Sequence record: NC_020079.1
Reading direction: 5' to 3' (one strand)
From: Escherichia phage phAPEC8
DNA length: 64,000 bases
The position numbers were made by a program, and so were the translations under genes. The notes under the pieces are model-generated. The model was not told the DNA's origin, searched no databases, and saw nothing but the letters and a program-made list of their open reading frames with translations. Shown here one piece after another: positions 1,211-40,127 of this stretch. The stretch's first letter is position 1, and the number at the start of each line of letters is the position of its first letter.

Positions 1211-1720
1211 TTAAACAAAATAAAATGGTTGAGAGAGGCCCAAACGATTCTTTGGGTCGTATACATACCAAGCGTATGCTGTCTTATCTGTTCCACCTGC
1301 AACAAACGAAGGCCGTTCTGAAAGGACTATAAGGTTTGTTGGTGGATTCTTTTGATGGAACTCTCGTCGTTTCTTTGACTCCAAGAAGCCCAACCGAAGA
1401 AGATAAATACAAACATCCGCCTCTTTTAAGCTCTTTTCCAAGAACTCCATTGCTAACTTAAATGGAGGATTTGTGATTATAATATCGGGACGATTTTCCC
1501 ATTTATGACTAAAATAATCTTTACCTTCTTCAAGTTCGCAATATTCTGAACCTTCAGGAAAATGGCGATAAATCGCTTCAGCTTCACCTCTACAAGGTTC
1601 TGCAAAAACCCAACCTTCTTCCTTTAGATTTTTGAAATCTATAACACTAAACAAACTATTGATTGCTTTTTGCGGTGTCGGATAATAATCGCTCGTTGGG
1701 CGATCATAATCTAATGCCAT
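1211..1720 (-). CDS. small phage Dam-like DNA N6-adenine methyltransferase
   Basis: DYYPTP near N-terminus and catalytic-type motif DIIITNPPF; about 169 aa as in small phage Dam-family enzymes. Confidence 0.55.
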   Translation of the reverse strand: MALDYDRPTSDYYPTPQKAINSLFSVIDFKNLKEEGWVFAEPCRGEAEAIYRHFPEGSEYCELEEGKDYFSHKWENRPDIIITNPPFKLAMEFLEKSLKEADVCIYLLRLGFLESKKRREFHQKNPPTNLIVLSERPSFVAGGTDKTAYAWYVYDPKNRLGLSQPFYFV

Positions 1721-2183: not shown

Positions 2184-2876
2184 TTAAATAGCGGTTCCTT
2201 CGAAATCCGCCACATTTACGAGATTAATATTTTCAGATTTAGAAGTCAAGTTGTTTTCTGCAACAGATTTTTCTTCAGTATCCGCCTCGTTACCTGCCAC
2301 GTTACGAGGTTCTTCTTCACCGTAGGGATTACCGAATTTCAAAAGATTGATCAATTCTTCTTTGGAGAAGTTTTCTAAATCATCGTCTGTTAATTCAATA
2401 ATCTCGTCTTGTTCTTCAATAAATGTTTCACCACCAGAAAAAGCATCTCGCTTTTTAGCTACTTCCATAGCCTGTTCTGGTGTTGCCCCTGCATCAAGAG
2501 CAGCTAAAGCAAAGTCTGACCCACTTCCTACCGCATAATATTCTTCATCAATCGGATATGCACGTGTTGGGTTGTTACCTTCGTGCAGGAAAATACGTCC
2601 GTCTGGATGAACAACAAGTGCAATAAACTCTTCATCTTCTTTATCTGGATCAGAGTGAATCATCAAACCAGGGACAGCATCACGTGCTGCTTCGCACTGT
2701 AGATTTTGTTCAAACCATTGAAAGAAAGAAAGCACGGAGGTCAGACGACCAGCACCACCTACAAGGTAATCTCCAATTTTTCGGACCTTTTTGAAATTAA
2801 TAGAATCTACACGTCCACCAAAAGTTACCTTACCGTCACTCAAAATCTTATTTTTGGTTGCAATAATTGTCGTCAC
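2184..2876 (-). CDS. HslV-like N-terminal-threonine peptidase (proteasome family) with acidic C-terminal tail
   Basis: N-terminus MTTIIA (Thr right after Met), KVRKI, GGAGRLTS, AVGSGS motifs align with E. coli HslV (TTIVSV, KVRRL, AGGTADAF, AIGSGG). Confidence 0.55.
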   Translation of the reverse strand: MTTIIATKNKILSDGKVTFGGRVDSINFKKVRKIGDYLVGGAGRLTSVLSFFQWFEQNLQCEAARDAVPGLMIHSDPDKEDEEFIALVVHPDGRIFLHEGNNPTRAYPIDEEYYAVGSGSDFALAALDAGATPEQAMEVAKKRDAFSGGETFIEEQDEIIELTDDDLENFSKEELINLLKFGNPYGEEEPRNVAGNEADTEEKSVAENNLTSKSENINLVNVADFEGTAI

Positions 2877-3411: not shown

Positions 3412-4221
3412 TTAAATAAACACTTCAGTAATCAGTTTAGACAAACGTCCACGTTTATTATCGTCCGTTGTCAGTTCAACGTATCCAATAAAATCTACAA
3501 TTGGCTCACGAACACCTTCTTCATTTTCTGGATATAAAAGTTCCAAAATTTGATGCAGACCATTGCTACGTTTTTTAATTGCATATGTCTGGCGAACATC
3601 GCCTAATACAATAACATGCGTATTAATACCTGCACGTTCAATAAGAAGTTTAAGTGTTTCTGTTGACATAAGTTGTGCTTCGTCAATAATGACGATTGTA
3701 TTATCCAGGGTGGCCCCCAACAAATAGTTAGGAATATTCAATTCGATCTTACCTGATCCAATATCGTTTTCCAATTTGTTGGCTGTCATGAATTGCTGGA
3801 AAATACGTTTTGTAGATTCATAGTGTGCTGCTAGTTTATCTGTTTTATCCCCAGACAAGAAACCAATCTGGTCATCTCCTACTTCAGTAGGGTTCTTGAT
3901 AAAAAGTAGTTTACGGAAGTCTCCTGAACGAAGCATCTGCAAAGCTTTCCATAAAGCAACAGAGGTTTTACCAGTCCCTGCCGGAGCATTTACAACAGTC
4001 AGATCATTCCAGATCATGCTTTGAACAATCTTATTTTGGTCCCCTTCAGGCATAAATTCATCTAAACGGTAATCGTCATTACCTACCGCTTTTGCTGCAT
4101 AACGGCTTTCAATCTTTGCTGAATTAGCCAATTTCTGCCGTTGTGTTTTAGCTGCGGTTTTATTTCCCATAGTAGCACTCCTTTTAGAAGGGGCCGAAGC
4201 CCCTTTATTAGTTGTAAGCAT
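3412..4221 (-). CDS. phoH: PhoH-like ATPase
   Basis: Walker A NAPAGTGKTS and PhoH signature IGFLSGDKTDK. Confidence 0.8.
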   Translation of the reverse strand: MLTTNKGASAPSKRSATMGNKTAAKTQRQKLANSAKIESRYAAKAVGNDDYRLDEFMPEGDQNKIVQSMIWNDLTVVNAPAGTGKTSVALWKALQMLRSGDFRKLLFIKNPTEVGDDQIGFLSGDKTDKLAAHYESTKRIFQQFMTANKLENDIGSGKIELNIPNYLLGATLDNTIVIIDEAQLMSTETLKLLIERAGINTHVIVLGDVRQTYAIKKRSNGLHQILELLYPENEEGVREPIVDFIGYVELTTDDNKRGRLSKLITEVFI

Positions 4222-4708
4222 CTAAAGTTCCAGAAGTCAGAACTTTAATTACTCGTTCAGCACGGTTTGGCGTCTGGCTATACCATTGGCTTTTACGCAT
4301 GTTTTTACCTGCTTGAGTATAATATGCATTGCTGATTAAAGTCAAGCTATTTTGAAACCCTTCAGCACCTTTTAACCCCAACTGGAAAACCATGTTGATT
4401 ATTCCCAATTTACGAGTATCACTAACCTTATCATAGATTGGTGATAAGATAGCACTGTTTTTTATGTCTCTCTTCACTTTTGCAACATCGTCAGCAAAGA
4501 TTTGACGGGCTTCTTTTTCTGTGATAACTCCATTAGTCTTACGACCAAGAAGATTATCTAAGATTTGAATAGCCTTTGCTTTATCTTTTATTTTAGTCAG
4601 AAGGTGTCCTATGCCGACTGTCCAATAACCAAGATGGTCTTGATAAACAGTAAGCTTCAGTCCTTCATCGACTCGTAGCATATCAAACTCATCTACTACT
4701 TTAGCCAT
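4208..4708 (-). CDS. T4 e-type lysozyme (endolysin)
   Basis: Near-collinear with T4 lysozyme: MLRVDEGLKLTVYQD..GYWTVGIGHLL..INMVFQLG..WYSQTPNRAERVI. Confidence 0.85.
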   Translation of the reverse strand: MAKVVDEFDMLRVDEGLKLTVYQDHLGYWTVGIGHLLTKIKDKAKAIQILDNLLGRKTNGVITEKEARQIFADDVAKVKRDIKNSAILSPIYDKVSDTRKLGIINMVFQLGLKGAEGFQNSLTLISNAYYTQAGKNMRKSQWYSQTPNRAERVIKVLTSGTLDAYN

Positions 4709-4870: not shown

Positions 4871-5131
4871 TTACTCCGCAATTTGAGCCATGAGATCACG
4901 CAGTTCGGTAAAACCGCCTACGTATGTTACCTCCCCGTTCACTTCAGACAGAATTTGTGGAAATGTGCGTGGAGGAACTCCGGTAAGATCAACAACTGTT
5001 TTAGTCATTGATTCTAAATCATAGTCTTGATCAAGACTTAAATATTCAAACTGTTTATTGCGCATGGTTAATAGTTGTTTTGACATTTCACAAAATTGAC
5101 AGTTAGGTTTACCAAAAATTACAAATTCCAT
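4871..5131 (-). CDS. glutaredoxin-like protein (NrdC/NrdH type)
   Basis: CQFC redox motif near N-terminus, TFPQI and GGF motifs; adjacent to the nrd genes. Confidence 0.65.
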   Translation of the reverse strand: MEFVIFGKPNCQFCEMSKQLLTMRNKQFEYLSLDQDYDLESMTKTVVDLTGVPPRTFPQILSEVNGEVTYVGGFTELRDLMAQIAE

Positions 5132-5973
5132 TACCTCTCCTTATTAAGTAATACTGCTAAAGACTGTTCAATACCTTTATTTAAATCTGATTTTGTAAGA
5201 TAGTGACTGGTTACTAGTTGTGACTTCATCGGACGTGCTGCTGGAGCATTATAGGTTGAAGCTGATACCGCCGATATCTTAACAGGTTCTGGCATCTGTG
5301 TCAAGATCTTTTCCGCAAACTCCGCCCAAGAAATAAGATGGCTTCCTGCAAAATGGTAAGTCTTAACAGACCTTGACCAACCTGTTCTTAATACTTCAAA
5401 AATAGCTTCTGCTAAATCTGGAGCATATGTTGGACAAGAGAACTGATCAGCAACAATAATAAAATCACGTTGTCCATCATTATAGCGAGACAACATGGTT
5501 TTTAGAAAGTTATTTCCAAATTCGCTATATACCGAGGCTGTTCGAATAATATATGCATTTGGGTTAACTCCTCGCACCATTTTTTCACCAAGTTCTTTCG
5601 TATACCCATAATTGTTTATTGGGTTAGGTGTAGTATCTTCAAAAATAGGATGAGAATAATTAAAAATATAGTCTGTAGAAATATGCACAAAATCAATTTT
5701 AAGTTTGCTGCACACTGCCGCAATATTTGCAGGTCCATACGCATTAACAGCCAAAGCAGTAGCAAAATCATGTTCTGCTTTATCTACAGCCGTATAAGCG
5801 GCGCAATTAATAACACCATCTACATAATCTTCAATAATAGCGTTTCGCACAGCTTCAAAATTTGTAATATCTACACGTTCTTTAGGATAAATTAAAGATA
5901 CATTTGAAGGAGCCACTTTACGTAAAGCTTGTCCCAGTTGTCCATTACCGCCCAATACCAGATATGTTAGCAT
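5131..5973 (-). CDS. rmlD: dTDP-4-dehydrorhamnose reductase
   Basis: GGNGQLG Rossmann motif, NCAAYTAVDKAE, STDYIF, YGYTK motifs matching RmlD. Confidence 0.85.
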   Translation of the reverse strand: MLTYLVLGGNGQLGQALRKVAPSNVSLIYPKERVDITNFEAVRNAIIEDYVDGVINCAAYTAVDKAEHDFATALAVNAYGPANIAAVCSKLKIDFVHISTDYIFNYSHPIFEDTTPNPINNYGYTKELGEKMVRGVNPNAYIIRTASVYSEFGNNFLKTMLSRYNDGQRDFIIVADQFSCPTYAPDLAEAIFEVLRTGWSRSVKTYHFAGSHLISWAEFAEKILTQMPEPVKISAVSASTYNAPAARPMKSQLVTSHYLTKSDLNKGIEQSLAVLLNKER

Positions 5974-6533
5974 ACACCCTCGCTACGTAACTGTTGAAAA
6001 GATTTAGCCATTGCATCTTTTGTTGATAGAATAGGTTTAAAACCTTCGTCAAAAATCATATCGAAGCCCCAATCGATCCCTATATCAGGATCATCCCAAC
6101 GTAAACTTTGTTCACTAGAAGGGTCGTATGGAGTTGTGCATTTGTATTCAAAGATAGCATCCATACTCAAAACTATAAAACCATGAGCCAAACCAGGCGG
6201 AAGCCAAAACTGCGTATGGTGTCGTGCACGAAGAACAACACCGTCCCAAGCACCGTAAGTTGGACTATCTTTACGTAAATCTACAGCGAAATCCAATACT
6301 TCCCCACTTACACAACGAACTAGCTTACCTTGCGGGTTATTTGTTTGAAAGTGCATTCCTCGCAAAACACCGAAGTTTGATTTAGACATGTTATCTTGAA
6401 CGAAAGTTTGTCTACCAATAATATCTTCGTATTTTTGTTCATTATATGTTTCTAGAAAGAAACCACGATCATCTTTATAAACGTCTGGTTTGATAATTAC
6501 CGCACCTTCAATTTTTGTTTTTTCTACTTTCAT
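5967..6533 (-). CDS. rmlC: dTDP-4-dehydrorhamnose 3,5-epimerase
   Basis: Start moved to the internal ATG at 6533 ([26 protein letters not shown]..), giving an ATGA overlap with rmlA; the track ORF extends 40 codons further into rmlA. Confidence 0.8.
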
Positions 6534-7408
6534 TTTCTCTCCGCTAATTTGAGTAGGTATTGCCCGTACTCTGTTTTCTTCAGTGAGTTTCCATGATACA
6601 CCAAAGTCTCTAAAGAAATCCACCCTTTTTTGAAAGCAATTTCTTCCAAGCACGCAATCTTCAATCCTTGACAGTTCTCAATAGTCTGCACGAATTGACC
6701 AGCTTCCATCAGACTGGCGTGTGTTCCTGTGTCAAGCCAAGTAAATCCTCGTCCGAGAACTTCCACTTGTAACTTCCTGTCTTCTAGGTAGCTGCGATTG
6801 ATATCAGTGATCTCCAGTTCTCCACGCGCGGAAGGGGTTACTTCTAATGCACGTTGAATAACAGAGTTATCATAGAAATACAAACCTGTGACAGCATAAT
6901 CTGATTTAGGATTTTCAGGTTTCTCTTCAATAGAAATAGCTTGACGATTACTCCCAAATTCAACCACACCGAATCGTTCAGGATCTTTCACCAAATACCC
7001 GAAAATACAAGCTCCGCCCCAAACATCTACCATCTCACTGGCGTTAATCAGTAGTTTACCAAAGCTTTGTCCGAAGAATAGGTTGTCACCTAAAATAAGA
7101 GCAACAGAGTCTTCTCCGATAAAATCTTTACCTATGATGAAAGCTTCCGCAAGACCTCGTGGCTCGGATTGGATTGCGTAAGTGAGTTTTATCCCAAACA
7201 TAGACCCATCTCCGAGAAGATACTCAAAGTCTTCCTGATCACCTGGTGTGGTGATGATTAAAATATCCTTAATGTCAGCCAACATCAATACCGATAAAGG
7301 GTAGTAGATCATGGGTTTGTCATACACAGGGAGCAATTGCTTGCTCACACTGCGTGTTACCGGATGAAGGCGGGTTCCACTTCCTCCCGCCAAAATAATA
7401 CCTTTCAT
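6530..7408 (-). CDS. rmlA: glucose-1-phosphate thymidylyltransferase
   Basis: [19 protein letters not shown]-terminal nucleotidyltransferase signature; 292 aa. Confidence 0.9.
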
Positions 7409-7416
7409 AACCCTCC

Positions 7417-8409
7417 TTAAATTTTCTCACTCCACCATTGAGGGTTGTTTAAGTACCATTCAATCGTTGAGTAGAGATCTTGTTCAAATGTAGAGTTTGC
7501 ACTCCAGCCCAGTTCAGACTCTATCTTAGAAGGATTGATTTCATAACGCAAGTCATGTCCTTTACGATCTTCAACAAAAGTTATCAAGTTGGAAGAAGGG
7601 TAGGTTACTGCTTCTGGATGTACAGTATCCATATAGTCACAAACCATATAGATGATCTCCATATTGGTTTTGGGATTACGTGTTCCAACATTATACGTTT
7701 GACCTGGTTCTCCACCTGTTGCCACTTGAAGAATAGCTCGCGCATGATCCTCAACAAAAAGCCAGTCTCGCACCTGGTCGCCTTTACCATACACCGGAAT
7801 CTCTTTATTCGTCAAGATACTTGTGATGATTTTTGGGATCAGCTTTTCTGGATGTTGATAAGGCCCAAAGTTATTGGAGCAGTTGGTTATCACAACAGGC
7901 AAATCGTAGGTGCGGTGCCAAGCTTTCACAAGATGGTCAGATGCTGCCTTAGACGCACTGTACGGGCTTGAAGGGGCATAAGCTGTCTCTTCGGTAAAGG
8001 GAACGCCAGAGTCTGCCATATCGCCGTACACTTCGTCTGTGGAGACGTGTACGAACATCTTCAGTTTATTTTTTGGGAGGAGCCTTGCAGCTTCCAATAA
8101 ATTGTATGTACCGATAATATTGGAGTCGATGAAAACTCGTGGATTCTTGATAGAATTATCCACATGACTTTCTGCCGCTAAGTGAATGATGAAGTCAGGA
8201 TTGCACTCTACTACTAAACTTTTGACCTGGGTTTCGTTTGCCAAATCTGTCATGCTTAGTTTAACGTGAGTGATATCGCCTACATTCTCAATATCTGCTG
8301 CATAGCCCATCTTATCAACGACAAAAACTTCGTTATTAGGATCTTGACAAAGAGAGCGCACCACGGCACTCCCAATAAAACCAAGACCACCTGTTACCAG
8401 ATAGCGCAT
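7417..8409 (-). CDS. rmlB: dTDP-glucose 4,6-dehydratase
   Basis: [24 protein letters not shown] and YSASK motifs of SDR dehydratases; 330 aa. Confidence 0.9.
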
Positions 8410-8418
8410 CAGTTCTCC

Positions 8419-8745
8419 TTACCAGACATGTTGAGAAATAATAGTTTCCGTTTTAATGTTATATTTTTCAAGTAGCTTTGCATAGGCTTCTTTTGCATTC
8501 TCATTCAATTGCTCAAGATCTACAGCTATGCTTCCCTCTCCGCCTTCTAAATCAAGGCCATATATGCAATAAGACTCATCCGCATCGTAGAAAGGAGAGA
8601 TGCGGCTTAAGTCCAGACCTTCTTGTAAGAACCAGTTAAAATCTCCATCAAATTCTTCTTCAATTCTAGGATCTTCTCCTACAGCCTCTTCCCATTTATT
8701 AAAAGGTGCACCCTGTAACATACGCCATTCAATATCAATACCCAT
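8419..8745 (-). CDS. hypothetical acidic protein (108 aa)
   Basis: ORF track. Confidence 0.4.
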   Translation of the reverse strand: MGIDIEWRMLQGAPFNKWEEAVGEDPRIEEEFDGDFNWFLQEGLDLSRISPFYDADESYCIYGLDLEGGEGSIAVDLEQLNENAKEAYAKLLEKYNIKTETIISQHVW

Positions 8746-9035: not shown

Positions 9036-9244
9036 TATTCCTCCTTAATTATTTCAAACTTGGCAACACCATTTACAATAATATGACCACAAGACATAAC
9101 TCCTAGCCAAGGATCGCCGTTTTTCTTCAGGCGTTTACCGAATACATCACAAAAACCATTCTTCATTTCGGAGGCTTCATAAGAAGCCCCTTTATCAAAA
9201 ACGTCTTTGAATGTGTCGATTATACCAACACATCTCAAAATCAT
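9035..9244 (-). CDS. hypothetical protein (69 aa)
   Basis: ORF track. Confidence 0.4.
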   Translation of the reverse strand: MILRCVGIIDTFKDVFDKGASYEASEMKNGFCDVFGKRLKKNGDPWLGVMSCGHIIVNGVAKFEIIKEE

Positions 9245-10329
9245 TAGAAGTCAAGCTCCTCATCATCAGAGAGATCTTTGTTAGCTGAATTCAATTTGTA
9301 ATTAGTTAACTGAATCTCTTGGGCTGCTGACTGAATCAAATCAGGATTCAACCATTTTTCCATCCAAGCTAAAGGACTATGTTTAGGTGCTTTAAACTTG
9401 GCTTTCATTTTCAATCGACGATAAATAGGAGCAGCATTGAAATAAACCCACTGTTTAGACAATTCGGCGTTAAGACCTACAATAAAACGACCTTCACTAA
9501 ACAGGTAGTCACACCACTGTTCCTCTTGTTCAACAACAGTGTCGAGGATCAAAGTCAACTCTTCAATATTGTCTTCGTAAATTTTACGCCAAATTGGGTC
9601 ATGCATCAATGCATCAATTACAGCATAATCCATCTTAACATGCAAGATTTCATCTAGCATAATTTTCTGGATCAGTTTACAAGCCCCAACAAACAGTTGT
9701 TGTTCTGCCATAGCAAAAGTAGCAGAGAAGGAAGATATAAACTGAATACCTTCTAATCCAATCAGGGCTACCATCCCTTTAAGAATCAACAATCGAAGTT
9801 CATCGTTAGCTTCAATCAATCCTAGAGCATACTTATGACCAGCTTCTTCCAACTGACCCATGATATCAGCAATGATACCCATACGATTGAAAATTTTATC
9901 ATTAACCATAATCTGATTGATGACTTCAATTGGATCTGGAGTACATTGGCGGATTATTTCAGAATACGTTAACGCATGGAGAACTTCCATTTCACTCTGC
10001 TTCATCATCATAGCACAGGCTTCATTGTTACTCAAGAATGGAGAGAACAAAGTGATGATTGATTTTGCAAGAGAATCATTTTCCCATTGGAACGATAAGT
10101 TTTTAATCATAACGTCATAGTTGTTTTTAGAACAAGCTACGAAATCTTTACGTGTCTGATCCAGATTAACTTCGTTTTCATCCCAATCTTGTGCTTTTTG
10201 AAGTTTGTAGAGTTTGTGCATTTCTGGATAAGTTACGTTAACAGAATCAAAGATCCCTAATTGCTCCCCCAAAAATACTGGATATTTCCCTGTCTTGTAA
10301 ACTTCGTTGTGTAAATTAATTGCTGCCAT
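9244..10329 (-). CDS. nrdB: ribonucleotide reductase class Ia small subunit
   Basis: 361 aa, adjacent to nrdA; length and overall pattern fit the R2 ferritin-like subunit. Confidence 0.75.
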   Translation of the reverse strand: MAAINLHNEVYKTGKYPVFLGEQLGIFDSVNVTYPEMHKLYKLQKAQDWDENEVNLDQTRKDFVACSKNNYDVMIKNLSFQWENDSLAKSIITLFSPFLSNNEACAMMMKQSEMEVLHALTYSEIIRQCTPDPIEVINQIMVNDKIFNRMGIIADIMGQLEEAGHKYALGLIEANDELRLLILKGMVALIGLEGIQFISSFSATFAMAEQQLFVGACKLIQKIMLDEILHVKMDYAVIDALMHDPIWRKIYEDNIEELTLILDTVVEQEEQWCDYLFSEGRFIVGLNAELSKQWVYFNAAPIYRRLKMKAKFKAPKHSPLAWMEKWLNPDLIQSAAQEIQLTNYKLNSANKDLSDDEELDF

Positions 10330-10654
10330 TTAAATCCTCCACTATTTCACAAAAACCTCTTAAGCTTAAAATATCTTCTTCCTCAAAATCATTGCTCCGG
10401 TAGAAAGCTTCCAGTGCTTCCCATACGCTTCTACCAAGTATAACAGTCACTGTTTCTTCACTTCTTGCCCTTATTATTGCGTAAGCCGTGGCTTCTGGAT
10501 AAAAAGATTCCCAAATCTGCATGTTAGCTATTTCAAGACCGCCAAGATAATGGTGACACCAAGTAGGGGTAAAATCTTCAGGGCGAATCAACAGAGGCTT
10601 AAACCCAGGTCGGTAGATTGGGGTTACTCCAGGTAAAACTATAAGTGTGCTCAT
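10316..10654 (-). CDS. hypothetical protein between nrdB and nrdA
   Basis: Start moved to the ATG at 10654 with GAGGAGG RBS (track start 10723 would overlap the nrdA 3' end). Confidence 0.4.
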   Translation of the reverse strand: MSTLIVLPGVTPIYRPGFKPLLIRPEDFTPTWCHHYLGGLEIANMQIWESFYPEATAYAIIRARSEETVTVILGRSVWEALEAFYRSNDFEEEDILSLRGFCEIVEDLNGSN

Positions 10655-10694
10655 AATCCTCCTCAATAAAAAGGGGCTGAAGCCCCTAGTTTCA

Positions 10695-12935
10695 TCACAT
10701 TTTGCAAGCTTCACAACCACCATCAGAATCTTCTTGTGCTAAAGAGTCTGCTGATTTTGTTCTACTGTTAAGGTAATACAATGACTTGCCACCAAGTCTA
10801 GCAAAATTCAGAATAAACTGCATCTCAGCTTTCACTGATAAACGTCCACCTACCAATTTAGAATAATCTAGCCAAGAATCACAAGAAATTCCTTGGTCCG
10901 TAAACTTGGTAAAGATACCATACATTTCTGCAAGATCTTTAGCCGGAGTGTCCCAGGCAGACTGGTAGAACATTTTCAGTTTTTCATAGTCTGGAACAAT
11001 AAATAATACACTACCTTTCTGACTTTGTTTATACATAATAGTATCACGAACAGGATACAGAGAGTTAGTAGTATTGCTTACCAAACTGCTGGACTCATTA
11101 GGTGCAATAGCAGCCAAGACACTGTTACGGATACCACCTTGTTCAATGATTTCAGCACGTAAGCCTTCCCAGTCCATTTTAAGATCAAAATTACCGATAC
11201 TATCTACTGTTTTAGCATAAGTGTCAATTGGTAGCCAACCTTGAGGCCATTTGGTCTTATCGATCCATTCTGCATTACCTTTTTCCTTAGCCAGACGCAG
11301 AGAGGCTTTTGCCAACCAAAAGTAATGACGTTCTGCAAGTTCATGCATTAATTTTTTAGCATAAGCGTCTGAATAATTTACAAAATTACTTGCCAAATAA
11401 TGCGCTAAGTTTGTAATGCCTACACCAATAGATCTACGTGCTTTAGCAGTTATTTCGTTATGTTTAAATGGATAATCCATTGTTTCAATAACGTTGTCAA
11501 TTGTCAATACAGTGTAGTATGCAACATCCTCATATTCTTCAGGTAAGACACGACCAGCAACAATAGAAGATAAGAAGCATAAAGCCAATTCTTGATTTTC
11601 TGTATTCTCACCAGTAAAGAGATCCGGCATACTGTGGAAAGCTTTAGTTGGTAAGAAGATCTCTTGACACAGGTTTGATTGATACACCGTATCCAGGAAA
11701 GGTGTATGGTTGTTAACGTTGTCAGCAAAGAACATGTAAATACGTCCTGTTTCTGCACGTTGAACAATAATCTCTGTCAGAAGATCACGAGCCTTAACAA
11801 ATTTTTTCTTAATGCGACGACGGCTTACTTTGTCATAAACTGCATCAAACTCTTCTTCACTTTTATACAAAGCTTCATAAAGTTCAGGAGCATCATCACA
11901 ACTAACTAACATCCAATCTTCGTTTTTTGCTGCTCGACGCAAGAACGAACGGTTAACAACAATAGAATAATCCAGTTTGTCTACTCGTTTATCTATAGGT
12001 GTTGTTGGATTCTTCAGTCGAATCAGATCGTCGAAGTCTGGTTCAAGTATGGTAAAGGTAACTGTAGCACTACCTCCACGGCTTGCTTGCTTCGAAGCTC
12101 CAACACTATCTTCCATCCATTTCAGATACGGAAGAAGACCACCATGAATAATACGATTATTCTTAACACCTTGACCTGTGGCACGAGTTTGAAGATTAAC
12201 ACCAATACCTGCGTTATTCAACGTATACTCATGAGCTAAGTAATTAGCAATGGCTAAAGACTCTGCCGTATCGTCTGCACGGAACAAACAACAAGACGCA
12301 CTTCCTTTGATTGGAGTTCGTAGAGTTGTCAGATACGGCGATGGCAGATTAATCTTAAGATCGCTAACATAAGTATAAAGTTTTTTAATATCTTCTATAC
12401 GGCGTTCTTTTGGTTGGATCTCCATAACCTTCATTGCGATACCAATGAAAAGAAACTGTGGAGACTCATGCACCACATCGTTTACTGCATCTCGAATAAG
12501 ATATTTATCTACCATCTGACGTAAAACAGAATAACCATAAGTTAGATTTTTATTATGCTTTACAATCTTACCGATTTCTTTGATCTCTTCATCAGTATAA
12601 TCCATTTTAGCCCAATGTCCACGTTCTACCATATCATGATAAAAGGTATTCAGTGAAGGGATACTGTGGTATCCCCCATGAGCCTGTTTGTAAATCATAC
12701 CCAGAAGAAGTCTTCCTGCCATATCACTGTAAGCTTGTGTTTTCTTGTCAATACACGCTGCAATCATTGCTTTATGCAGATCACGTGTAGACACACCGTC
12801 ATAACACCGCTTCACAGCTTCTAATTCAATTTCAGACCAGTTTAGTTTACCTGCTGCAAATTCAGACCACTTGCGAAGTTTTTCTGGATTAAACTCCTCT
12901 GTCTTACCGTTAGATTTAGTTACAAAACGAATCAA
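10695..12935 (-). CDS. nrdA: ribonucleotide reductase class Ia large subunit
   Basis: 746 aa; N-terminal ATP-cone-like region, NLCQEIFLPT active-site motif, C-terminal redox pair ..GGCEACKM; TTG start with GGAGG RBS. Confidence 0.9.
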   Translation of the reverse strand: MIRFVTKSNGKTEEFNPEKLRKWSEFAAGKLNWSEIELEAVKRCYDGVSTRDLHKAMIAACIDKKTQAYSDMAGRLLLGMIYKQAHGGYHSIPSLNTFYHDMVERGHWAKMDYTDEEIKEIGKIVKHNKNLTYGYSVLRQMVDKYLIRDAVNDVVHESPQFLFIGIAMKVMEIQPKERRIEDIKKLYTYVSDLKINLPSPYLTTLRTPIKGSASCCLFRADDTAESLAIANYLAHEYTLNNAGIGVNLQTRATGQGVKNNRIIHGGLLPYLKWMEDSVGASKQASRGGSATVTFTILEPDFDDLIRLKNPTTPIDKRVDKLDYSIVVNRSFLRRAAKNEDWMLVSCDDAPELYEALYKSEEEFDAVYDKVSRRRIKKKFVKARDLLTEIIVQRAETGRIYMFFADNVNNHTPFLDTVYQSNLCQEIFLPTKAFHSMPDLFTGENTENQELALCFLSSIVAGRVLPEEYEDVAYYTVLTIDNVIETMDYPFKHNEITAKARRSIGVGITNLAHYLASNFVNYSDAYAKKLMHELAERHYFWLAKASLRLAKEKGNAEWIDKTKWPQGWLPIDTYAKTVDSIGNFDLKMDWEGLRAEIIEQGGIRNSVLAAIAPNESSSLVSNTTNSLYPVRDTIMYKQSQKGSVLFIVPDYEKLKMFYQSAWDTPAKDLAEMYGIFTKFTDQGISCDSWLDYSKLVGGRLSVKAEMQFILNFARLGGKSLYYLNSRTKSADSLAQEDSDGGCEACKM

Positions 12936-13711: not shown

Positions 13712-14710
13712 TCACCATTTAGTATGATTTGTTAAAAGTTGACGATGTTGAATCCAGCCTTTGAAATTGCCAGACCAAAACTTACCATTACGATCTACAT
13801 GGGTAATACCTGGTTCCCAAGAGTTAAAATCCCAAGGAGCATTGATAAACAAATCTTCAAAACAGTTCTCTCCATATTGTTCGCATGTTTCTTGAATTGG
13901 AGTGGCTTGATGTTCAAACGGAGAAGCATGAACCTTGCGCCCAGTCAGCAAACGACCATAGATATCTAAAGCTTTATCTTTAGTTGCATTTAAACGACGA
14001 TAGCTAACCTGTGCACAACATGAAGCTGAAATAGCTTTGGCTTCTTCCAAAGTAAGCACAACAACTTCTCCAGATTCATCTTGAACGTAGTATCCACCAA
14101 AAACAAAATGATCGTCACCTTCTGTGCCAATATTATCGTAGAAATGGTCTACATAAGGTGTGTGCCATTGCCCTGGTTTCAGCACTTCTGGTGTAGATCC
14201 TTCATACTCTTTGTGCATCTCTTTAGCCAAAGCTTCGATAGTAGGATCGGCTTCTTTGTCATCACGTAGCCACCAGAAATTTTCATATTCTGTTGCTGTC
14301 AGAACTGTTTTAATTCGTTGGAAAGGTTCCAGAAGACGGTTTGCAACTTGTTTGTGGTACCCTGCCAAAGAGAATTCTTCTGCAAAACGTGCTGCACTAA
14401 GCGCGGCAAGATCCCACCACTCTTGAGCAGTATAACCTGCATCAATAAGAGCGTCATGATCAACACCTTTATCCTGCATACCAGGTTGGTTAGCCCCAAA
14501 ACGATAAGGACGAGCAGGTTGATTTCGCACCATTTCAATCAGTGTTTTAACAGGTATAGCACGGCTAGAAGCAGCATTACGACTGAACAGGCGGTGAGTC
14601 ATCAATTCTGAATGAATAATACGTGGATATTCTAGTTCAAAAGTTACAATCTCTTTTCCGTCTTCAGTGATGGAATGCGCAATAATACTAGCCGAAATCT
14701 GTTTTGTCAT
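13712..14710 (-). CDS. ThyX-like (FAD-dependent thymidylate synthase family) protein with divergent motif
   Basis: THRLFSRNAASSR aligns with the ThyX RHRx7-8S motif (compare RHRIASYNELSGR), but the first Arg is replaced by Thr; 332 aa. Confidence 0.55.
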   Translation of the reverse strand: MTKQISASIIAHSITEDGKEIVTFELEYPRIIHSELMTHRLFSRNAASSRAIPVKTLIEMVRNQPARPYRFGANQPGMQDKGVDHDALIDAGYTAQEWWDLAALSAARFAEEFSLAGYHKQVANRLLEPFQRIKTVLTATEYENFWWLRDDKEADPTIEALAKEMHKEYEGSTPEVLKPGQWHTPYVDHFYDNIGTEGDDHFVFGGYYVQDESGEVVVLTLEEAKAISASCCAQVSYRRLNATKDKALDIYGRLLTGRKVHASPFEHQATPIQETCEQYGENCFEDLFINAPWDFNSWEPGITHVDRNGKFWSGNFKGWIQHRQLLTNHTKW

Positions 14711-14719: not shown

Positions 14720-15328
14720 TTAGTTTTTAAAATTGTTCAAAGTGTTAAAAACATCCAAACATGTTAGCCACTGATCTTCTAAACCTGTGATCACAACATT
14801 TGGTTTTTTCTTTAGTTCTTCTAGATGGTTATCTTTATAAGGCGTATTAAAATATATTTTAACCACTTCATCTGGAAAATATAGTAGGTTATCAGACCTG
14901 TCATCTATTGCTATATCACAAGGCAATAAGTATTTTTCTTTCGTAGCAAAAAAGCCGTTACCAGATCCTTTGCTAAAATCAATCGTATCTAACGTTCTTA
15001 AAACATGCTTATGTTTAGAACTTAAGTGACCACCTTTTGTCACACTTGCGATCAAAAGATTGCTACCTTTCCTTGAAACATACTTTAAGAAATCTGGCAT
15101 ACCTGGAACAAAACCCATTGTATCATAGAGATGAGGATTATCCAGAAATCCGTAAGGATCTATATTGAACTCCTCCCTGAAACCAGGAAAGTAGTTGGTA
15201 AGATCATAGTCTGCATTTTTTGTGAATGTGTCTATCTTAACACCAAGTCCACTAATCTTATTCAACCATTCTAACCAAGCAACATCTAATGGAGCCACAA
15301 CTAAATCCCAATCACATACTATCTGCAT
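14720..15328 (-). CDS. putative HAD-family 5'(3')-deoxyribonucleotidase
   Basis: N-terminal DxDxV-type motif (CDWDLVV); position within the nucleotide-metabolism module. Confidence 0.4.
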   Translation of the reverse strand: MQIVCDWDLVVAPLDVAWLEWLNKISGLGVKIDTFTKNADYDLTNYFPGFREEFNIDPYGFLDNPHLYDTMGFVPGMPDFLKYVSRKGSNLLIASVTKGGHLSSKHKHVLRTLDTIDFSKGSGNGFFATKEKYLLPCDIAIDDRSDNLLYFPDEVVKIYFNTPYKDNHLEELKKKPNVVITGLEDQWLTCLDVFNTLNNFKN

Positions 15329-20119: not shown

Positions 20120-20845
20120 TTACTTGTTAATAATACCTGCAATATTAGGTTTGACAAAGGTCGATGGTTTCATGATCTTACCTTTATCATCAAAGAACAC
20201 ATACACTTTCTGTTTTTCATTATAAACAGCATGAACACCAGTGTATGCCCCTTCTGGACGATTGGCATTTCGTTCTTCAATTGCAGCGCATTCTTGTGCA
20301 ATGGCTGAATCGATATCCGAAGTTTTCCAAGTTTTCAGCAACTGTTGTTTAGTTGGATACTTGGAATCATTACTTTTCAATACCTCTTTAATAACTTTCT
20401 TTTCTGGATATTTTGAACGGATTAGAGTGTCACGAGACATACGCATAATACCAGCAGCCATTAGTGCCATTTGAACTGGCTCTGTAAATGTTTGTTCCAA
20501 AGCATCAAAATCAGTATACACAGTTGGAGTAAAAACATCGCCTACAGCATAGTCCAAGAAATTCATCGTATGTTCTTCACCAAAGAACATGTAAGTCAGA
20601 TAACTGGATACTACAAAAATATCCGCTGCTGCATCCAAGAGTTCTACATGATCGTTTACTTTCGCGGCTGTTTCATACTCTTTAAGCTCTTCACGAACGA
20701 ACCCGATTTGGGACATAAATAACTCTTGAGTGAATTCAGGTTGTTCACCACCTCGTGCTTTGGCATTCCAATCAATTACGTGCTTTGCTGCATTTTTGAA
20801 AAATTCAGTATCGAATTTAATATCTTTAAAAAAATTCTCGATCAT
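20120..20845 (-). CDS. putative MazG-like nucleotide pyrophosphohydrolase
   Basis: FVREELKEYETA...ELLDAAADIFVV resembles the MazG EExxE...D helix pattern; weak. Confidence 0.3.
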   Translation of the reverse strand: MIENFFKDIKFDTEFFKNAAKHVIDWNAKARGGEQPEFTQELFMSQIGFVREELKEYETAAKVNDHVELLDAAADIFVVSSYLTYMFFGEEHTMNFLDYAVGDVFTPTVYTDFDALEQTFTEPVQMALMAAGIMRMSRDTLIRSKYPEKKVIKEVLKSNDSKYPTKQQLLKTWKTSDIDSAIAQECAAIEERNANRPEGAYTGVHAVYNEKQKVYVFFDDKGKIMKPSTFVKPNIAGIINK

Positions 20846-27142: not shown

Positions 27143-27217
27143 GGCCCTGTAGCTCAATGGGAGAGCTGTCGGCTCATAACCGATAGGTAGCTGGATCGAA
27201 ACCAGCCAGGGCCACCA
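27143..27217 (+). tRNA. tRNA-Met (anticodon CAT)
   Basis: Hand-folded cloverleaf: acceptor GGCCCTG/CAGGGCC, anticodon loop CTCATAA, encoded CCA; T-loop ATCGAAA. Confidence 0.7.
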
Positions 27218-27219
27218 AC

Positions 27220-27294
27220 GTCTTTATGGTGTAATGGATAGCACAGGAGTCTTCTAAACTCTTAGTCAAGGTTCGATTCCTTGTAAAGACACCA
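27220..27294 (+). tRNA. tRNA-Arg (anticodon TCT)
   Basis: Acceptor GTCTTTA/TAAAGAC, anticodon loop CTTCTAA, T-arm CAAGG-TTCGATT-CCTTG, CCA. Confidence 0.7.
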
Positions 27295-27490
27295 GAACAT
27301 TTTAACATGAATTAGCTCAAGTGATTTGAACCCACTACTGATCATGGTGGCAGAGAATGAGGCAAGTATGTCAGACATTATAAACAAAGGCCACGGTTAC
27401 ATTAGAAGACATAAATGCTCGAAGAGCACCGTTCGTGGAGAACGGGGGTTGGTGGAGTCACCATTCATGGTAAAATGTTTTAAAAAACTA

Positions 27491-27520
27491 TTGACAACTA
27501 ACATTATTTTATGTTAGATT
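27491..27520 (+). promoter_or_regulatory. sigma70-like promoter inside the tRNA operon
   Basis: CTATTGACA, 17-nt spacer, TTAGAT/TAGATT -10; a few nt upstream of tRNA-Ser. Confidence 0.45.
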
Positions 27521-32827: not shown

Positions 32828-34393
32828 GTGTCAACAGGAAAAAGAACGTACACTAAAAAGTCAGAATACTGGGACAAAGGTGCTGCAAATAAAGCTGCTC
32901 TCTCTCCAACAAAAGAGGCAGAGAAAGAGAAAACGTTACTCCTGTCACCTGAAATAGGAACGATCGGATTAAACTCAATCAAAGCATTTACGAATTTCAT
33001 GCAACCTTATGAGACTCGTTTCCCAGAATGTATTCGCACTTTTAAAGAGATGGGTGAAGACCCTGATGTAGCTACTGCTCTTGACGCTACATATATCTTT
33101 GTAGATAGAGCATTCTTTGATTTCAAGATAAAATACAATGTAAACTCGGCAAAGTCAAGAAAAGCTGCCAAGTTTATTGATTACATGTTACGCAATATGC
33201 AAGCCCCTCTACGTCAATATGTTAGATCACTTTTGACATATAAGCAATATGGTTTTGCATTCGCAGAGAAAGTTTATGAGTTGGATGAAGATCCTAAAAG
33301 TCCTTACTTTGGGTATTGGCGATTGACCAAATTGGCTTTTAGACCACAAGACACTCTTCACATGGCTCAACCTTTTACATATTCGGCAGACGGACGTTCT
33401 ATTCTATCTGTTAACCAGAATATCACCAATACGATGTTAGCTCCAGGTAATACAACTTTAGAAACTGGTATCAAAGAAATTCCTTTCAGTAAAGTTTTAT
33501 TTGTTGGTAGCAACATTACAGAGAATAACCCACTAGGAGTTAGTCCGCTTTTAGCTGTATATCGTAGCTGGCGTGAAAAATCTCTTATTCAGGAATTTGA
33601 GGTTATTGGGGTATCTAAAGATTTAGGCGGTATGCCAGTTCTCAAGGTTCCAAGTGACATTCTAAACAGGGCATCTTTAGATCCTGCTGGGGATGAAGCA
33701 CAATCTCTTCGAGTTCTCCAAGCCAACATCGCTAACCTGCACTCTGGTGAGCAAGCCTACATGGTATTGCCTTCAGACGTTTATGAAGGTACAGTGATGC
33801 GTCAATACGATCTTGTATTCCAAGGTGTTGATGGCACGGGTAAACAGTTTGACACTCAAGCGCTAATCAAACAACGCAAACTGGATATTTATAACCGTTT
33901 TGGTGCGGGTGTGTTGATTATGGGTGATGGTGATGCAGGAAGTTTTGCGCTTTCTGACAACAAACAAACACTATTGTCTCATTTTATTGAGCGAGATGTA
34001 GATATTGTTGTAGAAGCTATAAACTCTCAACTGATCCCTCAAACACTACGATTAAACAATATCTTCCTCTCTGATGAAGATATGCCTAAGTTTGTCAGTG
34101 GTGAAATGGGTGATCCTGATATTGAAGTAAATGCTAAAGCTATTCAGCAGTTGGTAGCCTCTGGTGCAATACCTTTAACCCCAGAAGTTATTAACGAGTT
34201 CCTTGAAAAAATTGGTTTTGAATATCGCATCCCTGATGATATTGTTGCCAACAAAGAGAAATTCTTTGAATTCATGGATAACTATATGCCTGACAAAACT
34301 TCACGATCAGGAGATGGTTTAGCTACAGCAGGAACTGGAACATCTGATAGCATTTCTGCTTTAGATCCTTCAGCACAAAACCTGTCGAATTAA
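32828..34393 (+). CDS. portal protein
   Basis: 521 aa, directly downstream of the terminase large subunit; GTG start with GGAGGA RBS. Confidence 0.65.
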   Translation: MSTGKRTYTKKSEYWDKGAANKAALSPTKEAEKEKTLLLSPEIGTIGLNSIKAFTNFMQPYETRFPECIRTFKEMGEDPDVATALDATYIFVDRAFFDFKIKYNVNSAKSRKAAKFIDYMLRNMQAPLRQYVRSLLTYKQYGFAFAEKVYELDEDPKSPYFGYWRLTKLAFRPQDTLHMAQPFTYSADGRSILSVNQNITNTMLAPGNTTLETGIKEIPFSKVLFVGSNITENNPLGVSPLLAVYRSWREKSLIQEFEVIGVSKDLGGMPVLKVPSDILNRASLDPAGDEAQSLRVLQANIANLHSGEQAYMVLPSDVYEGTVMRQYDLVFQGVDGTGKQFDTQALIKQRKLDIYNRFGAGVLIMGDGDAGSFALSDNKQTLLSHFIERDVDIVVEAINSQLIPQTLRLNNIFLSDEDMPKFVSGEMGDPDIEVNAKAIQQLVASGAIPLTPEVINEFLEKIGFEYRIPDDIVANKEKFFEFMDNYMPDKTSRSGDGLATAGTGTSDSISALDPSAQNLSN

Positions 34394-34421
34394 AAATATT
34401 TAATATTTTTTAATTTTTCTA

Positions 34422-34450
34422 TTGACAAAACAACAAATATCCTGTAGACT
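34422..34450 (+). promoter_or_regulatory. sigma70-like promoter upstream of the head-assembly genes
   Basis: ATTGACA, 17-nt spacer, TAGACT. Confidence 0.4.
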
Positions 34451-34486
34451 AAGATTTATGGGATATCTGTTTTTAAGAGGTTTCAA

Positions 34487-34966
34487 ATGGAACTCAATAA
34501 AGATACACTGTGGGAACTCTTCAAAACCTTCGCTGGTTTTAAAGAGAATTCTGAATCCCAACAAGATTCTATACCATCTCAAAAACCTGAAACTCTAGTC
34601 AAACAAAATAAATTTGATGAAGAAAAGATGCAGGTTATTGAGGTCTTGTATTGTCCACCTGAAGAAGACGATCTCCACGGAGAGCGCATGTCTGATTTGG
34701 AAATCAGGAAGATGGTTGACAACTTCAATGAGAATATTACCAACATTAGTGGTAATCTTGGTCACATGAAGAACACCGATAAGTTTTCTCCAATTAAAGC
34801 TTGGGTAAATGAAGTCGATTGTTACATTGGTGACGAACTCGTTGTGGAAGGAACTCCCCTCGTTAAAATCCAATTCAACGACCCTGAATTATATCAAGCT
34901 CGTAAAGACGGCGTTCTTAAAGGTTTGAGTATAGGCGCAATGGGCGTTAAAGTCAAGAAGGACTAA
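34487..34966 (+). CDS. putative head morphogenesis protein (159 aa)
   Basis: Position between portal and scaffold-like genes; no motif recognised. Confidence 0.3.
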   Translation: MELNKDTLWELFKTFAGFKENSESQQDSIPSQKPETLVKQNKFDEEKMQVIEVLYCPPEEDDLHGERMSDLEIRKMVDNFNENITNISGNLGHMKNTDKFSPIKAWVNEVDCYIGDELVVEGTPLVKIQFNDPELYQARKDGVLKGLSIGAMGVKVKKD

Positions 34967-34968
34967 TC

Positions 34969-36084
34969 GTGGCAAATACATATTTAACTAACGTAGACTT
35001 TTCAGGAAAAGCTACGGAAGAGTCACTAGGTGCTCATATTGCTTACACTTTTGATTTTCAAGGTGGAGCGGCATCTGGTTATAATACCCCCCTTTTATTT
35101 AAGTCAGACGGATCTCCAGACATAACTTTTGAAAAGTTAGAAGCTCTCACTAAAATGGGAGAAGATGTTACAGAGTTACGTAAAAGCTATATTCAACAAG
35201 TGATGGATCGCATTTCTGAAAAAGTGCGTGAAAAATTTGAAGCTGGTTGGGATTGGGTTTACGTTATTGATGCTGACTTCGATGCGAACGTTGCAATTTT
35301 CTGTTCAGATAACGGTATGTTCTCTGTTGGCTTTAAAGTTGACGGACTGAATGTTGAAGTTGAAGAGGTTGCTAAACCTGTTGTTCGTGTTACTGATTAT
35401 CAAGTTGTTGATGGTGATGTAATGATCTCCATTGATTTCTTTGAGGACGTTTTAGACGATGCTTTGAGTAATCTCGTTAAGAGTTCCTTGAAACAAAGTC
35501 AAGTTAAAGATTATTTAGTGAAAGCTCACGCTAAAGCTAATACAAACTCTGTGGATGCAGAGGCTAACCCCGCAGGTGATAAATCTGCAAACACAACTGG
35601 AATCAATAAAGGAGAAACCCCTTTGGAAAATATCAACAAAGAAGAATTCCTGAAATCTGCTGAATTCCAAGAACTGATGAAAGCACAGATTGCTGAAGCT
35701 GTAGAAAAAGCAGCAGCAGATGCACGTGCAGCCGCAGAACTTGAAGCACAGGAAAAAATCGCTAAGGCAGAACAGGAAGCAGAAGAACTTCGTAAAGCTG
35801 AACAAGCTCGTATCGAAGAAGAATATACAACTGTTGTTAAATCCTATTCTTTCGTAGAAGAAGACAAAGTTGAAGCTCTCGTTAAATATCTGGTAGACAA
35901 TAAAGATATCGCTGAAACTATCGTCAAAGCATTCGAAAAAGCACGTGCAGAAGTGGACGCAGTTAAGAAAGAATTTGGAACAGAACGTGGTGTTGACGTG
36001 ATCAATACTCAACCTGTAGCTAAATCTTCTTCTGAACTGATTAGTCAGAAAGCTGCTGAACTTAAAAAAGCCCAGAAACAATAA
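34969..36084 (+). CDS. putative scaffolding protein
   Basis: 371 aa; C-terminal half Ala/Glu/Lys-rich and helical (AEAVEKAAADARAAAELEAQEKIAKAEQEAEELRKAEQ); immediately upstream of the decoration and capsid genes. Confidence 0.4.
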   Translation: MANTYLTNVDFSGKATEESLGAHIAYTFDFQGGAASGYNTPLLFKSDGSPDITFEKLEALTKMGEDVTELRKSYIQQVMDRISEKVREKFEAGWDWVYVIDADFDANVAIFCSDNGMFSVGFKVDGLNVEVEEVAKPVVRVTDYQVVDGDVMISIDFFEDVLDDALSNLVKSSLKQSQVKDYLVKAHAKANTNSVDAEANPAGDKSANTTGINKGETPLENINKEEFLKSAEFQELMKAQIAEAVEKAAADARAAAELEAQEKIAKAEQEAEELRKAEQARIEEEYTTVVKSYSFVEEDKVEALVKYLVDNKDIAETIVKAFEKARAEVDAVKKEFGTERGVDVINTQPVAKSSSELISQKAAELKKAQKQ

Positions 36085-36103
36085 TCTTAGGAGATTAAAT
36101 TAA

Positions 36104-36502
36104 ATGGCTAAAGGAATTACTTTATCTAACTCTCGCCAGGAATTCGGACACCTGGTTCTGGGTGGAGTGTTTAGCTCTGACCTTGGACACTGTGTACGTG
36201 AAGTTAACCTGGTTAAAACAGCAACCATGAAAATTGGTTCTATCCTGAAAGCTGACAACACTGAAGCTGCTAAAGCTGAAGCTGCCGATGCTGCTAAAGT
36301 TCTGATTTGGACTGATGCTCTGTTCGGTATTGACGATGTAGCAGTAGGTGACACTTTCACCGCAGTTGTTGGCGTACGTGATCTTACTCTGAACCGCTTT
36401 GCAGTATACTACAAAGATGGCTCCCTGGTAGATGACGCTGGCGTAGCAGCACTGGAAACACATGATCTGAAACTGACCGAAAAAGTCGTTTTCACTTCTT
36501 AA
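36104..36502 (+). CDS. head decoration protein (lambda gpD-like position)
   Basis: 132 aa; strong RBS TAGGAGATTAAATTAA; high-expression codon bias; sits immediately before the major capsid gene. Confidence 0.5.
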   Translation: MAKGITLSNSRQEFGHLVLGGVFSSDLGHCVREVNLVKTATMKIGSILKADNTEAAKAEAADAAKVLIWTDALFGIDDVAVGDTFTAVVGVRDLTLNRFAVYYKDGSLVDDAGVAALETHDLKLTEKVVFTS

Positions 36503-36523
36503 TTTTAATAGGAGATTAATATA

Positions 36524-37525: not shown

Positions 37526-37546
37526 TAGAACTCTGTTAATATTAGA

Positions 37547-37575
37547 GGCTCGTCCGTGATGGGCGAGCCTTTTCT
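37547..37575 (+). terminator. rho-independent terminator after the major capsid gene
   Basis: GGCTCG...CGAGCC hairpin followed by TTTTCTGTTT. Confidence 0.5.
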
Positions 37576-37609
37576 GTTTACAATAAGAGTTTACAATGAG
37601 GAGATTGAT

Positions 37610-37954: not shown

Positions 37955-37963
37955 GGTGGGCTT

Positions 37964-39000: not shown

Positions 39001-39045
39001 CTTGCATAAACTTTGTTTTTGATGTATACTAAAAAGGAGATACAA

Positions 39046-40093: not shown

Positions 40094-40127
40094 ACTCATT
40101 GGAATTAAGTTTCTAACAGGAGCATAA

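Follow-up and report, generated by a model that had tools for sequence, protein, structure and literature searches.

The question raised by a small group of genes in Escherichia phage phAPEC8 is what use a strictly lytic coliphage has for deoxythymidine diphosphate (dTDP)-rhamnose of its own making. The genes lie at positions 5131-8409, on the minus strand, of the 64,000-nucleotide stretch of sequence record NC_020079.1 that we analyzed (hereafter, the window). They form four contiguous, co-oriented open reading frames, rmlB, rmlA, rmlC and rmlD, which together correspond to the pathway to dTDP-L-rhamnose. That the sugar is consumed during infection, as the initial annotation of this DNA suggested, is the natural reading of such an operon. 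We put at about 45% the probability that the operon feeds a cluster of the phage's own glycosyltransferases and that a rhamnose-containing glycan is thereby placed on one or more virion proteins.

Both the operon and its interpretation through DNA glycosylation are already known, annotated and published, and the operon itself adds nothing to the public record. The rml genes are named in the GenBank records of phAPEC8, phi92 and dozens of relatives, many of which refer to phAPEC8, and the isolators of phage tuntematon described a complete dTDP-rhamnose pathway in phapecoctaviruses and phi92-like phages (Olsen et al., 2020; PMC7552041). The same authors called its location in the DNA-metabolism region peculiar, opening a discussion of this odd placement that dates from 2020, and proposed that rhamnose is attached to hydroxymethylated nucleotides, as in T4 (PMC7552041). 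Phi92-like phages with the same genes were later reported to be exceptionally susceptible to restriction-modification (RM) systems (Maffei et al., 2021; PMC8594841), and a 2024 paper restates both the glycosylation idea and the RM susceptibility (PMC10844046). Our literature search turned up no experimental work on what these rml genes do. New here are a cluster of four glycosyltransferases in the same phages, the recurrence of three of these gene types as a trio, twice with an embedded dehydratase, the share of relatives that keep only rmlC and rmlD, and evidence against global glycosylation of the DNA.

Gene identity was judged by scores above the curated cut-offs of NCBIfam equivalog models, and all four proteins exceed theirs. 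The first gene of the series, rmlB (7417-8409), encodes a dTDP-glucose 4,6-dehydratase of 330 amino acids that scores 431.2 bits against TIGR01181 (cut-off 365.1). It is followed by rmlA (6530-7408; glucose-1-phosphate thymidylyltransferase, 292 amino acids), with 464.5 bits against TIGR01207 (cut-off 360.65), and by rmlC (5967-6533; dTDP-4-dehydrorhamnose 3,5-epimerase, 188 amino acids), with 224.2 bits against TIGR01221 (cut-off 155.75). The last, rmlD (5131-5973; dTDP-4-dehydrorhamnose reductase, 280 amino acids), has the narrowest margin of the four, 237.1 bits against a TIGR01214 cut-off of 224.05. Pfam is concordant for the rml proteins, with RmlD matching PF04321 at an E-value of 2.2e-73. 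The assignment of the four genes in the initial annotation is confirmed by these scores and also by the catalytic residues.

Alignment to solved structures indicates that the active sites are kept. RmlB is closest to Salmonella RmlB (1g1a, E 1.5e-110) and retains the Rossmann GxxGxxG motif, the Thr-Asp-Glu residues and the YxxxK motif (as YSASK), while being some 30 residues shorter than the enterobacterial enzymes. RmlA is closest to 4ho0 (E 4.8e-125), followed by E. coli RffH (1mc3, 2e-118), and in alignment to both the N-terminal nucleotide-binding loop GGxGTRL is kept as GGSGTRL. Aligned to Salmonella RmlC (1dzr, E 4e-56), RmlC conserves the cupin active site, namely the His of RGMHFQ, the Lys of QGKLVRC, the Tyr of FEYK and the Asp of STKDA, which we take to be the catalytic residues of the family. 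RmlD, for which 3sc6 is the closest structure (E 3.6e-44), retains GxxGxxG and the Thr/Tyr/Lys triad as GGNGQLG, STDY and YGYTK in alignment to 3sc6 and 1vl0.

There is little space between the genes. A 7-base overlap joins rmlC to rmlD, and the downstream glutaredoxin gene (grx) shares 1 base with rmlD; such overlaps of start and stop codons suggest translational coupling. A mechanical list of open reading frames had started rmlC at a GTG at 6653, which we dropped in favor of the ATG at 6533, given the GGAGAG Shine-Dalgarno sequence upstream of it and its ATGA overlap with the rmlA stop. The order rmlD-rmlC-rmlA-rmlB of the initial annotation is correct in plus-strand coordinates, but transcription runs the other way, from rmlB through rmlA, rmlC and rmlD to grx. 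As far as sequence can tell, it is well supported that this operon makes dTDP-L-rhamnose.

How old is this operon, and where does it come from? Between positions 4800 and 8800 the window shares 99.8% identity with Escherichia phage tuntematon, a Phapecoctavirus of the Stephanstirmvirinae, and 97-99% with dozens of other relatives, the genome as a whole being a mosaic relative of tuntematon, close but not identical. Phage phi92 (Justusliebigvirus) has the same arrangement of nrdB, small open reading frames, rmlB-A-C-D, a thioredoxin/glutaredoxin, a small open reading frame, a lysozyme and PhoH, with 53-71% amino-acid identity to the window along this string. RmlD homologues of at least 50% identity, where the sequences carrying them are long, lie on sequences of about 110-157 kb, the size of phage genomes; cellular homologues reach at most 45% identity and are mostly from Bacteroidota. 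Among 5426 complete E. coli genomes none has DNA covering all four rml genes. An rmlA/rmlB-type locus (rffH/rffG or rfbBA) is present in 5423 of the 5426, at 60-68% nucleotide identity, and we reject a recent capture from E. coli because no E. coli genome exceeds 68%. The operon thus presents itself, from these comparisons, as an old viral rml lineage and a conserved accessory module of the Stephanstirmvirinae. Three records named 'Campylobacter phage' (MG065650.1, MG065689.1 and MG065656.1) are 98% identical to E. coli Phapecoctavirus/Justusliebigvirus and are probably mislabelled or contaminant.

The initial annotation described the pathway as complete, and all four genes are indeed there, but the complete pathway is not what the subfamily conserves. 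Phage anhysbys, from the same isolation campaign as tuntematon, carries rmlC-rmlD only, with rmlB-rmlA cleanly absent; its junction falls exactly between the two GGAGA Shine-Dalgarno sites found in the window ahead of rmlB and rmlC. By megablast, 69 phage records contain rmlCD DNA and about 41 contain rmlBA DNA, and roughly 40% of Phapecoctavirus records keep rmlC-rmlD only. Phage ESCO37 has likewise been reported to lack rmlA and rmlB (PMC10269720). Between the window and anhysbys, rmlC differs at 14 synonymous codons and one non-synonymous codon, and rmlD at nine synonymous and six non-synonymous. E. coli makes dTDP-4-keto-6-deoxyglucose through RffH and RffG for enterobacterial common antigen. 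As these two enzymes are encoded in essentially every E. coli, the phage would strictly need only RmlC and RmlD to obtain dTDP-L-rhamnose, and the records with rmlC-rmlD alone fit a host that supplies the first two steps. The conserved unit, to judge from these records, is rmlC-rmlD, and rmlB-rmlA look like an optional booster.

If the phage makes an activated sugar, which enzyme uses it? That no glycosyltransferase was recognized in the initial annotation holds within the window: Pfam scans find none among its proteins, and none is annotated in the matching region of tuntematon. It does not hold genome-wide. Outside the region matching the window, the near-identical tuntematon genome (NC_052660.1) has four glycosyltransferase genes in a row, gp113-gp116, at 48463-51607. 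They follow a SleB-type endolysin gene and lie directly upstream of genes for a primase/helicase, a Dam methylase and DNA polymerase I. The first product, gp113 (187 amino acids), is a small enzyme that matches phrog_14179 and carries a GT-A-type motif, RDxDT. For gp114 (227 amino acids), in which a DDD motif is invariant, the predicted fold is GT-A (AlphaFold predicted local distance difference test, pLDDT, 89); for gp115 (315 amino acids) it is a GT4-like GT-B (pLDDT 94.6), and gp116 (314 amino acids) is a paralog of gp115.

The nearest folds to the gp114 model are STIV A197, TarP and collagen glycosyltransferases, and those to the gp115 model are sucrose-phosphate synthase, GlgM, PglA, BshA, MshA, Gtf3, SdgB and TarM; these are generic GT-A and GT4 neighbors, which identify neither donor nor acceptor. 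The GT-B neighbors include the protein-glycosylating GT4 enzymes Gtf3, GtfC and SdgB, and the T4 enzymes AGT and BGT are absent from the top 50 for gp115. Searching solved structures by sequence gave no usable match for gp114 or gp115. None of the four proteins is covered by an NCBIfam model, and none contains a transmembrane segment. The cluster is syntenic in Justusliebigvirus, and its distribution over phage genera matches that of rmlC. In a collection of cultured phages, the only matches to gp115 outside enterobacterial phages are transferases of Streptomyces and Arthrobacter phages.

Homologues of gp113, gp114 and gp115 also neighbor one another in 27 IMG/VR loci and in Pseudomonas and Enterobacter prophages. 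In the prophages they occupy the late region, between the lysis genes (holin/endolysin) and the terminase. Judged by this recurrence in unrelated phages and prophages, the trio of a gp113-like enzyme, a GT-A enzyme and a GT4-like GT-B enzyme is a module that moves among phages. Two copies, those of the Enterobacter prophage and of IMG/VR contig L027, have a gene for a nucleoside diphosphate (NDP)-hexose 4,6-dehydratase between the gp113-like and GT-A genes. The encoded protein shares 30% identity with the phage RmlB and carries the STDEVYG and YxxxK motifs; its best model is TIGR01181, at 180 bits and under the cut-off. The embedded 4,6-dehydratase is independent gene-neighborhood evidence that the donor is of the 6-deoxyhexose type. 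Sugar and transfer genes also stand together in cyanophage S-B05, where rmlB/C/D-like genes, an epimerase, a glycosyltransferase and an O-methyltransferase form one string beside tail-fiber genes. We rejected a strict co-occurrence of the trio with rml, since Klebsiella phage KP13-16 and the Pseudomonas prophages have the trio without it.

The explanation that we favor joins the two gene clusters. During infection, RmlA-D would convert glucose-1-phosphate and deoxythymidine triphosphate (dTTP) into dTDP-L-rhamnose, with RmlC and RmlD providing the steps that E. coli may not reliably provide and RmlA and RmlB duplicating, and so possibly boosting, the supply from RffH and RffG. We infer that dTDP-L-rhamnose is the donor for the four soluble transferases, and that these assemble a short glycan with rhamnose in it on some molecule, other than DNA, that is produced in the cytoplasm. 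Virion proteins would be the likeliest acceptor, favored by the late position of the module beside the terminase in temperate phages, by the solubility of the transferases and by the actinobacteriophage transferases being their nearest relatives in cultured phages outside this group. Doubtful, in our estimate, is the broader proposal that rml is the donor arm of an uncharacterized phage glycosylation module that puts a 6-deoxyhexose glycan on virion proteins, in lytic and temperate phages of Proteobacteria alike.

Several observations weigh against a virion glycan fed by the rml genes. The neighbors of both clusters in this phage are genes for replication and nucleotide metabolism rather than structural ones, a setting that fits a function on DNA, or an early one, better. 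The transferases are about 70 kb from the rml genes, in a different gene block, and were read in tuntematon, a close but not identical relative of the window genome. Phage KP13-16 carries the trio with no Rml homologue in about 99% of its genome, and the Pseudomonas prophages carry it with no sugar-nucleotide gene detected within flanks of 8-10 kb; the phage rml genes are accordingly not strictly needed by the trio, and the donor could be another sugar. Within one subfamily, the co-occurrence of rml and the transferases may reflect shared ancestry alone. Moreover, GT4 enzymes are mostly retaining and most known rhamnosyltransferases are inverting. Finally, our literature search found no report of rhamnose on the virions, DNA or host glycans of these phages.

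Could the rhamnose instead end up on the DNA? In the published proposal (PMC7552041), dTDP-rhamnose would be transferred to a modified base, much as glucose goes to hydroxymethylcytosine in T4, and would shield the phage DNA from host nucleases. In a restricted form of this explanation, only particular motifs would carry the sugar. The gene map is suggestive, with rml in the block for deoxynucleotide supply and the transferases adjoining primase, Dam and DNA polymerase, and the genome encodes Dcm-like and other DNA methyltransferases. The region of gp114 around DDD has a weak match to PF20691, the TET-associated glycosyltransferase family (E 1e-3; 19.5 bits against a cut-off of 27.5), and gp114 also matches phrog_842 (beta-glucosyl-HMC-alpha-glucosyltransferase) weakly, over 39 residues (E 7.6e-6). 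However, a Pfam scan of about 60 non-structural proteins of at least 130 amino acids from the window and tuntematon, beyond whose reach lie smaller or novel proteins, found neither a ThyA-type hydroxymethylase nor a TET/JBP dioxygenase, the only thymidylate-synthase-like gene being of the ThyX type. The scan did find NADAR, CapR, a ComF-like phosphoribosyltransferase (PRTase), Macro, TelA, TerD, vWA-TerF, SprT, a resolvase, and NT5C-like and MazG-like proteins; some of the proteins had been joined by GS linkers, which gave spurious Serglycin matches. Restriction sites, furthermore, are strongly avoided in the 150-kb tuntematon genome. The observed/expected ratio averages 0.64 for six-base palindromes and 1.00 for other hexamers (Mann-Whitney p 4e-13), and 10 of the 57 palindromes are absent altogether, compared with 8 of 3932 non-palindromes. 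Among the missing are GGATCC (24 expected), CTGCAG (31 expected), GCATGC, GTCGAC and six others, and the window alone shows the same pattern of palindrome avoidance. Avoidance of restriction sites is expected of DNA that restriction enzymes can see, not of hypermodified DNA, and here it is the signature of exposure to such enzymes. Two further features of the composition can be recorded: CCGG and GGCC are depleted about two-fold, and the few missing non-palindromic hexamers include GGTCTC/GAGACC, a type IIS site. Four transferases are, to our knowledge, more than any known DNA sugar modification uses, which counts against DNA as the acceptor; this number of GT-A and GT4-type enzymes is better suited to assembling an oligosaccharide than to decorating a base, and the GT-B enzyme resembles GT4 enzymes rather than T4 AGT or BGT. 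Phi92-like relatives with the same genes, for their part, are reported to be exceptionally RM-susceptible (PMC8594841). The lack of a hydroxymethylase or TET/JBP enzyme in the scan, the site avoidance and the RM sensitivity of the sister genus together make global glycosylation of the DNA unlikely. DNA, listed first among the acceptors in the initial annotation, becomes the least favored of them. It is probably not the acceptor, at least not globally, and we regard the proposal as a whole as improbable, with rhamnosylation restricted to particular motifs a possible, rarer alternative.

The main alternative to a glycan on the virion is remodelling of the host envelope, and we hold it to be unlikely, though less so than a modified DNA. 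Classically, dTDP-L-rhamnose is a precursor of O-antigen and cell wall, and the assembly of undecaprenyl-linked repeat units is usually the task of soluble enzymes of GT2-like and GT4-like type. Phage or host transferases could accordingly direct the sugar into undecaprenyl-linked glycans (O-antigen, lipopolysaccharide core or a glycan of the enterobacterial common antigen type), so as to block superinfection, to keep progeny from sticking to debris or to tie up undecaprenyl phosphate. PglA, TarM and TarP among the fold matches are in line with this, as are the many fibers and spikes with which these phages recognize surface glycans, the lysozyme gene at the end of the rml string and the lysis genes that precede the transferases (SleB-type endolysin in tuntematon, holin/endolysin in prophages). 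Yet the Pfam scans detected no flippase, polymerase, GtrA/B-type or other membrane component to go with transferases that themselves lack transmembrane segments. They detected no serotype-conversion (Gtr/Oac) family either, in what is a lytic phage and not a prophage. A strictly lytic phage would presumably have little time for envelope turnover, and the late operon that houses the prophage module is not where lysogenic-conversion genes are found. A minor alternative, which we consider very improbable, is that the pathway mainly manages nucleotide pools, as a sink for dTTP or glucose-1-phosphate or as a feedback effector, or else is a dispensable moron that serves no dedicated acceptor. It would account for the setting among nrdAB, grx, thyX, the NT5C-like nucleotidase and the MazG-like pyrophosphohydrolase, and for the natural dispensability of rmlB-rmlA. 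Four steps to one specific activated sugar would nevertheless be an odd way to drain dTTP, and the subfamily as a whole retains rmlC-rmlD, whose changes are mostly synonymous, in genomes that also encode transferases.

The immediate surroundings of the operon agree with the initial annotation, which placed it between a glutaredoxin and nrdB/nrdA on the strand of a ThyX-like gene; all of these are on the minus strand, within a nucleotide-metabolism block. Directly downstream of rmlD, with overlapping stop and start, is grx (4871-5131; PF00462 1.8e-9, several NCBIfam glutaredoxin models scoring below their cut-offs). Further along the same string a phage lysozyme gene (4208-4708, minus strand; PF00959 9e-11) is followed by a GC-rich hairpin, GAAGGGGCCGAAGCCCCTTT, at 4187-4206, a candidate end of the transcription unit. 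The hairpin comes from a promoter and terminator scan that yields consensus-level matches only, and we left it out of any argument about timing. Downstream of PhoH are genes for an HslV/proteasome-like peptidase (2184-2876, minus strand; a weak Pfam Proteasome match and an HslV family annotation in relatives) and a small DNA methyltransferase (1211-1720, minus strand). On the upstream side, the rml genes adjoin a gene for a 108-amino-acid protein with no assigned function (8419-8745, minus strand; phrog_15453 3e-73, no Pfam or NCBIfam match). The same gene sits directly upstream of rmlC in anhysbys, so that it is adjacent in the four-gene and the two-gene layouts. The flanks also include four small open reading frames.

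Beyond these, and still on the minus strand, come nrdB (9244-10329; ribonucleotide reductase small subunit, PF00268 3.9e-33, phrog_86 1.9e-103) and nrdA (10695-12935; large subunit, annotated as such in the near-identical tuntematon record). An extra small gene (10316-10723, minus strand; phrog_17458 1e-60) lies between them, with a GC-rich hairpin at 10672-10687 inside it. At this place tuntematon has only a 45-base gap, and the window is about 321 bases longer. The divergent ThyX-type thymidylate synthase (13712-14710, minus strand; PF02511 33.3 bits, E 5e-8; phrog_85 1e-107) is unusually long, at 332 amino acids, and the same block holds two further nucleotide-pool genes, for an NT5C-like 5'-deoxynucleotidase (14720-15328, minus strand) and a MazG/PRA-PH-like nucleotide pyrophosphohydrolase (20120-20845, minus strand). 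Eleven tRNA genes (two for Met, and one each for Arg, Ser, Tyr, Asn, Thr, Gly, Gln, Pro and Ile) at 27143-29148 on the plus strand mark the switch from minus-strand to plus-strand gene blocks, and the GC skew changes sign near 26 kb. In tuntematon, just upstream of the transferases (about 32468-47140), there is a set of the tellurite-resistance type with TerC, TelA, TerD, vWA-TerF, a ComF-like PRTase, a HAD hydrolase and a Macro domain, accompanied by the anaerobic ribonucleotide reductase genes nrdD/nrdG.

Knowing where the rhamnose goes has practical weight, given that broad-host-range phages of this type are by now components of therapy cocktails. Glycosylated virions would matter for immune recognition and stability, and a modification of the DNA for the evasion of defences. 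Should the module indeed act on virion proteins, phages of Gram-negative bacteria would have their first described system for virion glycosylation. The search is now narrowed to a cluster of four transferases, with the natural rmlCD-only and rmlBACD variants as controls and with ordinary DNA as the expectation.

How does this locus compare with known systems? Bacterial RmlABCD/RfbABCD operons, for example that of Salmonella, consist of the same four families with the same catalytic residues, tightly packed; the phage operon differs in being carried by a lytic phage, in its order B-A-C-D and in not being a recent capture from the host. The operons of phAPEC8, tuntematon, phi92 and other Stephanstirmvirinae are the same locus, with no difference of substance. 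With DNA glucosylation in the T-even phages it shares a lytic myovirus and sugar-transfer genes among those for replication and nucleotide metabolism. T-even phages, however, use a deoxycytidylate (dCMP) hydroxymethylase together with alpha- and beta-glucosyltransferases and take uridine diphosphate (UDP)-glucose from the host as donor, whereas here no hydroxymethylase was found, the donor would be a dTDP-6-deoxyhexose and the transferases are GT-A and GT4-like rather than of the T4 AGT/BGT type. Cyanophage S-B05 is, likewise, a large lytic myovirus with rmlB/C/D-like genes and a glycosyltransferase; its RmlC is 41% identical, and its sugar genes and transferase are contiguous beside the tail fibers instead of some 70 kb apart. 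Virion glycosylation, lastly, is documented in actinobacteriophages such as the mycobacteriophages Che8 and Corndog. Those phages infect Gram-positive hosts, and the transferases described here adjoin primase and polymerase rather than structural genes. What the two have in common are soluble transferases encoded by the phage, often two or more, and, in the prophages, a homologous module that stands at the head of the structural operon.

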